Shown piece by piece: positions 56,184 through 63,994 of a DNA stretch of 64,000 nucleotides (positions are counted from its first letter, which is position 1; every line of letters begins with the position of its first letter). The notes below the pieces were generated by a model that did not search any database, had not been told where the DNA came from, and saw only the letters and a program-made list of their open reading frames with translations. Source of the stretch: Escherichia coli (GTDB taxonomy: Bacteria; Pseudomonadota; Gammaproteobacteria; Enterobacterales; Enterobacteriaceae). The stretch is taken from the NCBI RefSeq assembly GCF_003334385.1, contig NZ_QOWN01000015.1; one strand, 5' to 3'. The translations under genes and the position numbers were made by a program.

Positions 56184-56486
56184 TCAGCCGAAAGGCACCC
56201 GCGCGTAATGTACAGTTTTTGACTGGGAGGTGCAATCGCCCAGGGGGAGGCTGAGTTGATCCCTTCCCCGGTGGCATGATTTGAAAGCGTCTGCGGGGAC
56301 GACTCCCCGTTCTTCGGTGGGTTGCGGACGGCATACGGTTCTCACGACAAACTCGTGCGTCACAAAGGTGGCGCTGCATTCAATGTTGTTGCACTGGTAA
56401 TATTTCTCCCTGATTGTTCCTGTATCGTTGGCGTCGCGGCTTGTTCTGGTGCGGGTACTTGCTCCGCAGTATGGGCAAGGATGCAT
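56184..56486 (-). CDS. ogr: Ogr/Delta-family zinc-finger late transcription activator, 100 aa
   Basis: N-terminus MHPCPYCGASTRTRTSRDANDTGTIREKYYQCNNIECSATFVTHE matches the P2 Ogr C-x2-C...C-x4-C zinc finger and flanking residues. Confidence 0.75.
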   Translation of the reverse strand: MHPCPYCGASTRTRTSRDANDTGTIREKYYQCNNIECSATFVTHEFVVRTVCRPQPTEERGVVPADAFKSCHRGRDQLSLPLGDCTSQSKTVHYARVPFG

Positions 56487-56527
56487 GATGGTCCCCCTGG
56501 CTGAAACGGGGTGGGCTCGCGCTCATT

Positions 56528-57673
56528 CTAGCCAGTCGTGGCGCGCTCTGCTATCCAGTCTGCGATTTTTGCTTCCAGCTCCAGTCTGGTGGTGAAGCCG
56601 CTGTCGTCGATGACGTGCTCAATGCGCGAAATAACCCAGTCCTGATTGTCAATGTCGCTCTTGAACCCGGATACCGTGCCGTGCATCTCCGGATACAGGT
56701 CGGCGCGTCCGCGCGCCAGCGTGATGCTGAATTCTGCTGCACCCCGCTGAAGTTGCTGCCAGCGTGCGGCAGCTGCGCGACGCGCGGCTTCTTCGTTCGG
56801 GTAGGTTTTTCTCAGCACATACACATTGCCTTCTGCGCCTTCCATGTATCCACCCTCCCGTGAACTGCTTTTCTCCGGCTTCTGTGTGGTTTTCGCGTTT
56901 CGCTTTTTCACGTTCACGGCCTTCTTCTGGCCGAACTTTAAATCCAGCCAGTAAGCTTTCACTCCGGTATAGGCTTTTCTGTCAGCAATGCGAAAGCGAT
57001 GACTGTCGCCATCCGAGCGGGTCAGGGCGAATGAGGGGAGGGCGCGCCCGCTGGCTGTCACACCGCCACCCGGCAGAATGAACAGCAGGCATCCGTTTTT
57101 TACGGTGGTTATTGCACCCAGCATGTCAGCCATGCGCGTGAGGAACGAGATGTCGCTTTCCTCTGTCTGGTCTGCATGGTCGATTTCGATATTCATCAGC
57201 ATTTCGCTGATTTGTGCTTTCAGTCCGTAACGGTGCGCGATGGCAGATACCACACGCTCAACGGTCACGTCATGCCAGGAGACTTCGCGTTTCACGTTAA
57301 ACTCTTCGCGAAAATCCGCACTGTTCGCGGATATGGTCAGCTTATCCGGCGGACCTTCGTGGCTCACTTCGTCCACCACAAACGTTCCCTTGCGAGTGAG
57401 GCTTTCACCTTTCCATCCCATCGCCAGCGATAATCGTGTTCCGCGTTCCGGAAGTACCACCCCGCCCTCGGCGTCGTCGATTTCCAGTGTCACCCTGTCA
57501 GCCTCAAAACCCCTGTTGTCTGTCATGGTCAGGCTCATGATGCGCTGCGTGATGTTCTTCAGGCTGGCATCTTTCCCTTCCAGTGTGATAGTGAAGTCTG
57601 GCACCCTAACGGTATCTTCCGCTGCATCCAGTGCGCTGTTGATGTGATGTGTTACTGATTCAGTGATGCTCAT
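56528..57673 (-). CDS. P2 gpD-like tail protein (late control D), 381 aa
   Basis: Resembles P2 gpD (…LSLAMGWKGESLTRKGTFVVDEVSHEGPPDKLTISANSA…, …SGFKSDIDNQDWVISRIEHVIDDSGFTTRLELE…). Confidence 0.8.
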   Translation of the reverse strand: MSITESVTHHINSALDAAEDTVRVPDFTITLEGKDASLKNITQRIMSLTMTDNRGFEADRVTLEIDDAEGGVVLPERGTRLSLAMGWKGESLTRKGTFVVDEVSHEGPPDKLTISANSADFREEFNVKREVSWHDVTVERVVSAIAHRYGLKAQISEMLMNIEIDHADQTEESDISFLTRMADMLGAITTVKNGCLLFILPGGGVTASGRALPSFALTRSDGDSHRFRIADRKAYTGVKAYWLDLKFGQKKAVNVKKRNAKTTQKPEKSSSREGGYMEGAEGNVYVLRKTYPNEEAARRAAAARWQQLQRGAAEFSITLARGRADLYPEMHGTVSGFKSDIDNQDWVISRIEHVIDDSGFTTRLELEAKIADWIAERATTG

Positions 57674-57733
57674 GATATCCCTCCCGTGTGCGTATCATCC
57701 CACGCGTACCTTGTCGTTTCTGTCCGGCTCTGT

Positions 57734-57751
57734 TGTAAAAAAATCCCCACA
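57734..57751. promoter_or_regulatory. TGT-N12-ACA dyad, the signature of Ogr-dependent P2 late promoters, in the D/FI divergent intergenic region
   Basis: tgtaaaaaaatccccaca; centre is about 85 bp upstream of the FI ATG (57827) and about 70 bp upstream of the D ATG (57673). Confidence 0.45.
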
Positions 57752-57826
57752 GCCCGCATCAGGTGAGGGCTGTGCGCCAATGGTGGATTATTCAGGCGAG
57801 CATAAACACAACTGATGGTGAATCGT

Positions 57827-59020
57827 ATGGCTGAAAAACGATTTCACGGTGTGCGCGTCACGGAGAATACCGACCTTGTGACGGCCATTAATGACGTTGA
57901 TTCCAGCGTCATTGGTATTGTTGCCGTTGCAGATGATGCGGATACCGGGCAGTTCCCCCTTAACAAGCCAGTGCTGATTACCCGTGTATCTTCTGTTCTG
58001 GGGAAGGCCGGGAAAGCGGGCACGCTTTATAAGGCCCTTAAAGCGATATCTGACCAGGTCAGTACACGGGTGATTGTCGTTCGCGTGGAGGCGGCAAAAG
58101 AGGGGGCTGAGAATAAAACACAGGATCAACTGGTCATTGGTACCACGGAAGAAGACGGAAGCTACAGCGGTATGCAGGCGCTTCTGGTTGCCGAACAGAT
58201 GGAAGGTATTGGTTGCCGACCCCGCATTCTTGCCGCTCCGGGCCTTGAATCGGATGCTGTCACGGCTGCACTGGTGACTGTTGCCGGAAAAATGCGCGCA
58301 TTTGCGTATTCCGGCTGCCCTGGCTGCACAAAACCGTCCGATGCTATTGCGTTCCGTAAAAAGATTTCCGGTCGCGAAATCATGCTTCTGTGGCCTGATT
58401 TCATTGCGTTCAACCCGGTGTCCGGTAAAAACGAAACCTTCCCGGCTGCGGCGTATGCGTGCGGTCTTCGTGCCCGACTCGACCATGAACAGGGCTGGCA
58501 TCGCTCCCTTTCTAACATGCCTGTGAAAAATGTTCTTGGGGTGTCAGCGTCTGTTTCCTGGTCACTTCAGGATGAAAACAGCGATGCCAACACGCTGAAC
58601 AACAGCGAGGTGACCACTCTTATTCACCAGGGCGACGGCTCCTTCCGTTTCTGGGGTAACCGTACGCCGGAAACTGCGGAGTACATCTTTGAGGTGTACA
58701 CACGTACGGCGCAGCAACTGGCTGACACCATTGCGGAGGCGCAACTTCAGATAGTGGATTCACCGCTTACGCCTGCCAATGCTAAGGATGCCGTGAGCGC
58801 TATCAAGGCAAAGCTGGATGCACTGGTGACAGCCGGAAAACTCATCGGGGCTGAGTGCTGGTTCGATATCATCGACAACGGCACAACCAGTCTTCGTCAG
58901 GGCATTGTGCGTATTCGCTACAAATACACGCCTGTTCCGCCGATGGAGTGTATGGAACTCTATCAGACGTTTACCGACGAGTTCTTCAGCTCTGCTTTTG
59001 CATCTCTTGGAGGTAGCTAA
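57827..59020 (+). CDS. Contractile tail sheath protein (P2 FI-like), 397 aa
   Basis: MAEKRFHGVRV..., FPLNKPVLITRV, DHEQGWHRSLSN, FRFWGNRT, YTRTAQ motifs match P2 FI; start trimmed to ATG 57827. Confidence 0.9.
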   Translation: MAEKRFHGVRVTENTDLVTAINDVDSSVIGIVAVADDADTGQFPLNKPVLITRVSSVLGKAGKAGTLYKALKAISDQVSTRVIVVRVEAAKEGAENKTQDQLVIGTTEEDGSYSGMQALLVAEQMEGIGCRPRILAAPGLESDAVTAALVTVAGKMRAFAYSGCPGCTKPSDAIAFRKKISGREIMLLWPDFIAFNPVSGKNETFPAAAYACGLRARLDHEQGWHRSLSNMPVKNVLGVSASVSWSLQDENSDANTLNNSEVTTLIHQGDGSFRFWGNRTPETAEYIFEVYTRTAQQLADTIAEAQLQIVDSPLTPANAKDAVSAIKAKLDALVTAGKLIGAECWFDIIDNGTTSLRQGIVRIRYKYTPVPPMECMELYQTFTDEFFSSAFASLGGS

Positions 59021-62943: not shown

Positions 62944-62945
62944 GA

Positions 62946-63419
62946 GTGATGGTTATGATGATGATTTACGGCATGTTTGTTTTTCAGTTAAGCACACTGC
63001 CACACCAACAAATACAACAGTCCCGTAACTGGAGGCATGTAAAGAACGAGCGAATCAACCGCTCAGCCAGCTGGCAGTATATCGGCGCGGGTGACGATAC
63101 CATCACGCTTTCGGGTTTGCTCTACCCGGAAATTACGGGCGGTGAAGTCTCCCTGACCGCACTGACCAGCCAGGCTTACGTCGGGCGACCATGGCCGCTG
63201 ATTGATGGGGTAGGGCAGATTTACGGGATGTATGTCATTACCGGGCTTAACACCACCCGCTCTGAACTTGATCGCTATGGTCGGGCAAGAAAGATTGAGT
63301 TTACTGTCACTTTTGAGCGTGTGGATGAAGATCTGCGTGAACGTCTTCAGTCCTCGTCGCTTGGTGATCTTGCGAATAACGTCAAAGGTGCCCTGAATAA
63401 TCTGTCCATTCCGGTTTAA
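62946..63419 (+). CDS. Tail protein gpU-like, up to 157 aa (true start may be a downstream Met)
   Basis: …IYGMFVFQLSTLPHQQIQQSRNWRH…DTITLSGLLYPEITGG… resembles P2 gpU; immediately follows T. Confidence 0.75.
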   Translation: MMVMMMIYGMFVFQLSTLPHQQIQQSRNWRHVKNERINRSASWQYIGAGDDTITLSGLLYPEITGGEVSLTALTSQAYVGRPWPLIDGVGQIYGMYVITGLNTTRSELDRYGRARKIEFTVTFERVDEDLRERLQSSSLGDLANNVKGALNNLSIPV

Positions 63420-63424
63420 ATAAT

Positions 63425-63449
63425 AACGCCCTGGTGTCAGGGCGTTTTT
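63425..63449. terminator. Bidirectional intrinsic terminator between convergent gpU and the tail-fibre-assembly-like gene
   Basis: Hairpin aacgccctg-gtgt-cagggcgtt followed by TTTTG on the plus strand and by a T-rich tract on the minus strand. Confidence 0.7.
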
Positions 63450-63454
63450 GCTGT

Positions 63455-63994
63455 TCATCTTTCGGTGGCGGGTTCTTCCGTTGTGGGCCAGCCCACAACG
63501 TAACGCTGAATGGCCTCCGCATCCTGAAGTTCTGCAATCTCTTTTTTCATGTTGCGCTGGCGCACATGAATTTCCATTCCCTTCGCGAACATTGCCTGTT
63601 GCGCGGCTTCACTCAGCGCAATCAGTTCTTCCGCAGTCATGGGGACGTCGTTGTTGTCTGCGTCTGTCCAGAAAAACTTCTCCGGGAGATTGCCTTCTTT
63701 TGCTGCGATAACTGATGGGCCAAGGCGATCCTGTGTTTCCTTTCCATAATCCCAGTTACGGCCATTAAAGCTGAAAATATAACTGGCTGATTCCATTCTG
63801 TTCCGCCAGGCGTTGATCCCGGCGGTTTTGAGTTCTCTGGCTTTTTCCGGGCTGATGGATGGCTGTACATGTTCTGCAATTTCACCGGCCTCTCCTTTCT
63901 GACAAGCGGCATAAATATCCCGCCCGTATGCTTCGGTATCGCTGGCTGTTGCAGTGAAAGGAACCGCCTGCTCAATGTGCTCAAACTTCACCAT
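63455..63994 (-). CDS. Phage tail-fibre-assembly/chaperone-like protein (DUF4376-like), 179 aa
   Basis: Complete ORF with ATG at 63994..63992; C-terminal half resembles phage tail fibre chaperone domains. Assignment from recalled similarity only. Confidence 0.4.
   Translation of the reverse strand: MVKFEHIEQAVPFTATASDTEAYGRDIYAACQKGEAGEIAEHVQPSISPEKARELKTAGINAWRNRMESASYIFSFNGRNWDYGKETQDRLGPSVIAAKEGNLPEKFFWTDADNNDVPMTAEELIALSEAAQQAMFAKGMEIHVRQRNMKKEIAELQDAEAIQRYVVGWPTTEEPATER

Follow-up and report, generated by a model that had tools for sequence, protein, structure and literature searches.

In the records of phages P2 and 186, the late tail genes are arranged colinearly, with H-G followed by FI-FII-E-E'-T-U-D-ogr, U and D overlapping, and D driven by the promoter pF (P2) or pJ (186). 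The FI..U-D part of this order is also found in Yersinia phage vB_YenM_31.17, Pseudomonas phage phiCTX and Ralstonia phage RSA1. A second arrangement, in which the FI-U block is flipped and D-ogr forms a divergent unit of its own, is already known, being annotated in many deposited phages. These include P88 and P884B11 (Xuanwuvirus), Klebsiella phage 3LV2017 (Reginaelenavirus), ST16-OXA48phi5.4 (Reipivirus), Enterobacter phage phiT5282H (Novemvirus), Serratia phage KSP20 and the more distant Salmonella phage SEN5 (Senquatrovirus), so that isolated phages of five Peduoviridae genera and KSP20 share the layout. Both P88 and a relative, Citrobacter phage phiSM, can be induced and form plaques (PMC5285337, PMC6456863), and the inverted layout is therefore functional. 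The two papers do not discuss gene order, and a literature search for the inverted layout, Xuanwuvirus or the late promoters of P88-like phages returned nothing relevant. Here, we describe the tail module at positions 56184-63994 of a 64,000-nucleotide (nt) stretch of Escherichia coli DNA (contig NZ_QOWN01000015.1 of assembly GCF_003334385.1; hereafter the window), which is the right end of a P2-like prophage with this second arrangement, and then focus on how D and ogr may be transcribed.

Taken as a whole, the explanation in which we have high confidence is that a P88-lineage P2-like prophage lies beside serS, that one ancient inversion of its FI-U block has become fixed and left D-ogr divergent from the block, and that the two units are probably served by a late promoter region with a shared activator box.

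An inverted tail block conserved across a clade

In the window, D and an ogr-like gene are on the minus strand, FI-FII-E-T-U are on the plus strand, and a tail-fibre-assembly-like gene is convergent with U. A preliminary description had read the same arrangement from the letters of the sequence, and it is confirmed by the open reading frames (ORFs), RefSeq annotation and PHROG matches. The block junctions that it placed at 57674..57826 and 63420..63454 are accurate, and the canonical P2-type colinear order with H-G upstream of FI, with which it compared the locus, agrees with the P2 and 186 records. Gene calls are based on three sources that agree, namely the ORF list, PHROG profile matches and the RefSeq annotation of locus L001, a prophage in E. 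coli G1/2 (NZ_CP060083) that is 99.9% identical to that of the window. FI, FII, E, T, U, D and the Ogr/Delta-type activator each have a PHROG match, and the tail and late proteins are 25-49% identical to P2 proteins (by tblastn, as are all identities to P2 given here), with RefSeq product names in agreement. In the rest of the L001 prophage, the minus strand encodes H, I, J, W, V, S, R, the lysis genes, X, L, M, N and O, and the plus strand encodes P and Q. This is the pattern of an inverted P2 map, and relative to P2 and 186 only FI-U is flipped. The locus shares with these two phages the gene set, an identical E/E' slippery site, the position of ogr by the prophage end and the distance from the activator box to the FI ATG, and most of its tail and head proteins are 43-54% identical to theirs, with lower values for E, T, W, R and N. 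In contrast, the P2/186-type operon, in which D follows U immediately, is encoded by the same strand and is driven by pF, is absent from the window.

The phages closest to the window by tblastn with D (60-80% identity) are Escherichia, Citrobacter, Enterobacter, Klebsiella and Serratia phages. P88 and P884B11 have G, then U-T-E'-E-FII-FI on one strand and D-ogr-hok on the other, with a D/FI spacer as long as that of the window and, as there, just one activator box, equally far from D; P88 also has a hok moron past ogr, and its D and FI are 73% and its U 77% identical to those of the window. The features that mark the P88-like inverted-block clade, namely FI-U opposite both D-ogr and the baseplate/fibre genes and a divergent D/FI junction of ~150-160 bp, are all present. 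P88 differs from the window in its integration site, in an Ogr that is ~45% identical to the longer (100 amino acids) Ogr-like protein described below, and in the U/G junction, where it has a DNA invertase and alternative tail-fibre cassettes and the window a terminator hairpin alone. The nucleotide sequences are too diverged for megablast, and a megablast search of the tail module against phages gave no match to the module as such, only matches to the tail-fibre-assembly gene and the hok region. With blastn, the identity is 71-74% over 58-75% of a 1.1-kb query spanning the D/FI junction, the window holding only part of the prophage. The prophage may or may not belong to Xuanwuvirus itself; the International Committee on Taxonomy of Viruses in practice sets the genus cut-off at ~70% nucleotide similarity over the genome, here to P88. 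Phages 3LV2017, ST16-OXA48phi5.4, phiT5282H, SEN5 and KSP20 have the divergent D/FI junction, the FI-U order and a conserved activator box in common with the window; unlike it, they belong to other hosts and genera, with a D identity of 59-72%.

In P88 and its relatives, a monophyletic clade of Peduoviridae, the FI-U flip is the normal architecture and has been inherited vertically. A scan of IMG/VR with a D alignment gave 80 loci (D 67-99% identical), and in every one D has FI as its immediate upstream neighbour, on the other strand, and ogr on its downstream side; FII, T and U stand behind FI in each locus long enough, that is, in all outside ~10 short ones. The 1.1-kb junction query matched both genes contiguously in ~45 phage records. 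Most of an 8.4-kb query is present in 16 complete E. coli genomes; the order and orientation are the same in every one, and 14 of the genomes align to it in a single colinear piece. More broadly, 1,494 E. coli records match the junction query and ~31 of 40 evenly sampled rows span both genes; the inverted layout occurs in about a fifth of complete E. coli genomes, by our estimate ~1,000 of them. Several O157:H7 genomes form a separate group, in which the junction query is matched in the sheath half alone; these may carry a remnant, or a more diverged D beside a related sheath gene.

The preliminary description had offered two options, an inversion of FI-U or a distinct lineage architecture. 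The second stands, and likely goes back to one ancient inversion; a recent or strain-specific inversion does not, and neither does the implied unusualness of the locus, the layout being standard in related complete prophages. It had also allowed that a divergent D-ogr might prove to be the usual layout in such prophages, which is what is found many times over. What could be said for a recent strain-specific flip of FI-U in an otherwise canonical P2-type prophage, possibly inactivating it, is that the block is reversed relative to P2 and 186 and that megablast finds no phage record closely similar to the tail module at the nucleotide level. However, the orientation is the same in 16/16 E. coli genomes, 80/80 IMG/VR loci and the infectious phages of five genera, the junctions have conserved regulatory features rather than scars, and all genes are intact, including the E/E' frameshift site. 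Such an event is very improbable, and the conserved layout already refutes it. That the junctions of the block are an artefact of assembly is a negligible prospect: nothing specific points to one beyond the generic risk for repeated prophage DNA, whereas independent complete assemblies from different laboratories and countries have identical junctions, and phage genomes sequenced from virions give the same ones. The independent assemblies already refute it.

A further possibility is a programmed invertible segment of the Gin/Cin/Hin type that flips FI-U between two orientations. P88 and P884B11 encode a DNA invertase adjoining the U end of the block, and the 186 annotation has Mu-like inversion crossover sites in P2-like tail-fibre genes. 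Yet none of the features of such a segment, i.e. crossover repeats, an adjacent invertase and two orientations among copies, is found here. No inverted or direct repeats link 57674-57826 with 63420-63454, where the best pairs are at chance level, and the best inverted-repeat pairs (16-33 nt, 72-88% complementarity) do not fall at the junctions, so that the block is not bracketed by inverted repeats. A search that allowed up to three mismatches did not find the Mu-like crossover site of 186 anywhere in the window, the RefSeq annotation of L001 has no invertase gene in the prophage, and the alternative orientation is seen in 0 of the 16 + 80 related copies. The P88 invertase adjoins alternative tail-fibre cassettes, the usual target of such invertases, and the inverted repeats near it fall inside the tail-fibre cassette, not around FI-U. 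A switch is therefore scarcely credible, and the two checks proposed in the preliminary description, for inverted repeats or recombinase sites at the junctions and for the alternative orientation in other assemblies (here 16 complete E. coli genomes), were both negative.

Neighbour-joining trees of D, which is outside the block, and of FI, which is inside it, each unite the inverted-layout phages in one clade (100/100 bootstrap) and are congruent, with the window sequence sister to P88 and SEN5 basal. The identity to P2 is even over the block and its flanks (D 48, FI 46, FII 48, U 49, J 54, P 46 and Q 45%). Because the outgroups are colinear, a single ancient inversion is indicated, and the simplest and most likely reading is that FI-U was inverted once in situ and has since been inherited vertically. 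It weighs against this reading that the direction of the change, with the colinear order as ancestral, rests on five colinear outgroup genomes. Alternatively, the FI-U cassette could have been imported from another phage lineage and have landed reversed. Phage genomes are mosaic, and T (25-39% identity) and E (29-31%) are far more diverged than their neighbours. T and E are, however, fast-evolving in every comparison, colinear phages included, whereas the identities of FI, FII and U to P2 (46-49%) and to P88 (63-77%) are like those of D, J, P and Q in the flanks. The even divergence across block and flanks argues against an imported cassette, as do the FI and D trees, which have the same topology and give full bootstrap support to the same clade; this improbable origin was rejected on both grounds.

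In practical terms, a non-P2 order in the tail module is no sign of rearrangement, degradation or misassembly. The inverted tail block is instead a reliable marker of a common enterobacterial P2-like lineage and is not something to be flagged in genome scans or in calls of prophage integrity. The only mildly new element of the locus is a second bidirectional late promoter with a shared box, predicted at D/FI.

A candidate bidirectional late promoter between D and FI

The four late promoters of P2 are Ogr-dependent and have a TGT-N12-ACA element (PMC3931495, citing Christie & Calendar 1985 and Julien & Calendar 1995). Two of them share one box: the P2 record has a single 'activator binding site; pO, pP promoters' at 3057-3087, with starts at 3016 and 3127, each 55.5 nt from the box centre. 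The preliminary description held that the flip changes which promoter drives D. This is reasonable and fits the sequence, the D/FI spacer resembling an Ogr-type late promoter. Near its middle is TGTAAAAAAATCCCCACA, a TGT-N12-ACA dyad with the Ogr/B/Delta activator-box consensus and the only such match in 55600-64000 (8.4 kb); between genes, the prophage as a whole has just one more exact match, in the middle of the O/P spacer (L001 41128-41145). The D ATG is 69.5 nt away from the centre of the box (57742.5). On the other side, the FI ATG is at a distance of 84.5 nt, which matches the 82.5 nt at P2 pF and the 81.5 nt at 186 pJ. Candidate -10 elements are present on both sides (Table 1). They place a predicted D-side start at ~57687, ~55 nt from the dyad centre as at P2 pP (55.5 nt), and a predicted FI-side start at ~57798, 55.5 nt from the box centre. 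The predicted starts are 111 bp apart, as are those of P2 pP/pO. The features of Ogr/B/Delta late promoters, namely a dyad ~55 nt upstream of the start, a -10-like element and no -35, are thus matched at the sequence level. In both cases one dyad-type activator site is midway between divergent late operons. The P2 pair differs in that it drives packaging and head genes (P-Q and O-N-M-L...) and has mapped starts, whereas those in the window are predicted; the prophage, which has an O/P pair of its own, would have a second shared-box pair at D/FI.

The same geometry is found in the relatives. All 74 distinct D/FI spacers have a TGT-N12-A(C/G)A match, and it is the only one in each except for a second, overlapping match in one of them. 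The N12 is freely variable and the TTTTTGTTGT lead-in is conserved, and when the spacers are displayed anchored on the box, conserved -10-like elements are seen on both sides. In the six relatives measured, 158-163 bp separate the two start codons, and the box centre is at 68.5-69.5 nt from that of D and at 83.5-88.5 nt from that of FI; in SEN5 the two distances are 76.5 and 81.5 nt. We infer that the D/FI spacer is a bidirectional late promoter with one shared Ogr box. In the proposed model, this box would act in both directions like that of P2 pP/pO, activating FI-U to the right and, to the left, a short new operon of D and ogr. With a symmetric site, D would stay under late control after an inversion provided only that a -10 was suitably spaced, and the inversion may have been tolerated because of this symmetry. 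On balance, we consider it somewhat probable that, following the inversion, the P88-like clade came to use one dyad-symmetric Ogr box for transcription both ways, which created a short D-ogr late operon and placed ogr under direct positive autoregulation.

Several points weigh against this interpretation. The start sites, the two-way use of the box and the co-transcription of D and ogr are all deduced from the DNA alone, and the literature searched holds neither mapped activator-dependent transcripts for this prophage or P88-like phages nor an experimental description of a second shared-box promoter pair. One TGT-N12-ACA is expected by chance in a 153-nt spacer with a probability of ~0.03 (8 matches in 64 kb), the conserved boxes come from related and thus not independent sequences, the right half-site is AGA rather than ACA in most relatives, and in SEN5 the distance from the box to the D ATG departs from 69.5 nt, as given above. 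The -10-like hexamers are weak, and a sigma-70 consensus scan reported nothing in the spacer; a null result is expected for activator-dependent promoters, though it is not positive evidence. Finally, the activator sites annotated in P2 itself have TGT-N12-CCA or a similar sequence and are missed by the exact TGT-N12-ACA pattern, so that the activator consensus is loose and a pattern match by itself is weak. It is geometry and conservation, not the pattern match, that carry the promoter argument.

Alternatively, the layout could be the clade standard with the box serving FI-U only, and D and ogr transcribed from a separate or constitutive promoter. The weak D-side -10 (GATGAT) and a D start that is a predicted one would suit such an arrangement, and the TAGAAT hexamer at the D stop codon could drive ogr independently. 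This candidate is possibly a separate ogr promoter, like the -35/-10 annotated at D/ogr in P2, but the inference is weak and the consensus promoter scan did not report the hexamer. On the other hand, although the N12 and other parts of the spacer vary, its D-side nucleotides are conserved at a constant distance from the box, with the box-to-D-ATG distance held within the narrow range given for the six relatives. No sigma-70 consensus promoter was found in the spacer, D is an essential late tail gene with an Ogr-dependent promoter in P2, and P2 itself is annotated with one box for two divergent promoters. We therefore regard a separate promoter for D and ogr as possible but rather unlikely.

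If the shared-box model holds, ogr would be autoregulated through a 1.5-kb transcript instead of by read-through of a 6-kb F operon, and the symmetry of P2-type activator sites would make whole-operon inversions nearly neutral. A P2-like late regulon could then absorb the inversion of an operon by reusing a symmetric activator site, which is a modest biological point.

The putative activator is encoded 41 bp downstream of D on the same strand. It is 46% identical to P2 Ogr and longer (100 versus 72 amino acids), and the PHROG 603 match covers residues 4-64. The zinc-binding motif of Ogr/Delta proteins is CX2CX22CX4C (PMC3931495); the window protein has four cysteines as CX2CX24CX4C, with a long loop two residues over that motif. 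Its identity to the Ogr proteins of other inverted-layout phages is 45-50%, compared with ~73% for D and FI, which suggests that the activator evolves much faster than the structural genes or has been independently exchanged.

Features of the module and its surroundings

Table 1. Coordinates of genes and predicted regulatory features in the tail module, numbered from the first letter of the window.
Feature	Position	Strand	Basis and remarks
ogr/Delta-like zinc-finger late activator gene, 100 amino acids	56184..56486	-	ORF; RefSeq 'ogr/Delta-like zinc finger family protein'; PHROG 603 transcriptional regulator, expect value 8e-15
Candidate -10 TAGAAT, a good hexamer 39 nt ahead of the ogr ATG and overlapping the stop codon of D	56525..56530	-	Read from sequence
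Gene D (late control D / tail protein), 381 amino acids	56528..57673	-	ORF; RefSeq; PHROG 52, expect value 7e-153
Divergent D/FI intergenic region, 153 bp	57674..57826	.	Putative bidirectional late promoter region
Candidate -10 GATGAT for a D(-ogr) transcript	57694..57699	-	nAnCAT pattern kept at this offset in relatives
TGTAAAAAAATCCCCACA, TGT-N12-ACA dyad (Ogr/B/Delta activator-box consensus)	57734..57751	.	Sequence match
Candidate -10 GATTAT for an FI-U transcript (pF equivalent)	57786..57791	+	GAT(T/G)AT kept in relatives
FI tail sheath, 397 amino acids	57827..59020	+	ORF; RefSeq; PHROG 23 tail sheath, expect value 2e-112
FII tail tube, 170 amino acids	59020..59532	+	ORF; RefSeq; PHROG 55, expect value 1e-56
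E	59584..59964	+	Translation; PHROG 103
E+E', 178 amino acids	59584..60119	+	Translation; PHROG 103
T tail tape measure, 943 amino acids	60112..62943	+	RefSeq; PHROG 28, expect value 3e-118
U tail protein	62955..63419	+	RefSeq start; ORF open from GTG 62946; PHROG 76, expect value 4e-70
Bidirectional intrinsic-terminator-like hairpin AACGCCCTGGTGTCAGGGCGTT, between convergent U and the tail-fibre-assembly gene	63425..63446	both	Terminator scan, scored on both strands
DUF4376 tail-fibre-assembly-like gene, 3' part	63455..64000	-	ORF; RefSeq; PHROG 1141, expect value 4e-72

Within the block, the correct FI start is the ATG at 57827 and not the in-frame upstream ATG at 57815. The E/E' chaperone pair is intact and is arranged as in P2-like modules, with a -1 frameshift just upstream of T. 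The slippery site T TTT TTG at 59913-59919, within GGTTTTTTG (59911-59919), is the same as the P2 site annotated at 19685, and E' is open in the -1 frame up to a stop at 60117-60119 that overlaps the T start.

At the other end of the block, the gap between U and the tail-fibre-assembly-like gene is 35 bp long and holds the hairpin alone. This hairpin would terminate both FI-U and the converging V...H-G-like operon. The start of the DUF4376 gene is beyond the window end; the gene encodes 200 amino acids in the identical prophage. Inside it, 20 nt ahead of the stop codon, is a near-perfect 22-nt palindrome, CGTTGTGGGCCAGCCCACAACG (63476-63497, minus strand), which two substitutions turn into an exact TGT-N12-ACA match in strain G1/2; it is coding (VVGWPTT) and is treated as a chance resemblance to an activator box. 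In P88 (L002 25416-27564) and P884B11 (L003 14322-16233), the DNA invertase and inverted alternative tail-fibre/assembly cassettes are exactly at the U/G junction of the flipped block. That the ancestral FI-U inversion was caused by an invertase acting at a secondary site is pure speculation.

The window also contains the E. coli chromosomal genes ftsK, lolA, rarA and serS, on which the ORF list and RefSeq annotation agree. The prophage starts just past serS, the stop codon of which is at 55673. In about nine other E. coli genomes, near-identical prophage copies begin matching at ~55783-55785, and by this measure the attachment (att) boundary between prophage and chromosome probably lies ~110 bp past the serS stop. 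Beside this predicted boundary is a bidirectional terminator-like hairpin (55786-55827). Outside the window, L001 has a 1,971-bp DUF6645 gene (34111-36081) and a DUF1378 gene (33882-34046) between the lysis genes and the tail-completion gene R. This pair is without a P2 counterpart at that position and is likely a moron.

Between ogr and the serS-side end of the prophage, a Hok/Gef-family type I toxin gene is encoded on the minus strand (55913-56053), with flanking structure to ~56180. An Rfam scan of 55600-64000 returned no family at gathering score, which leaves the hok/sok-like region without RNA annotation. P88 and P884B11 have the same hok moron at the same position, annotated as 'MokW-like host killing', and Shiga toxin (Stx)-converting phages carry 84% identical copies of the window gene.

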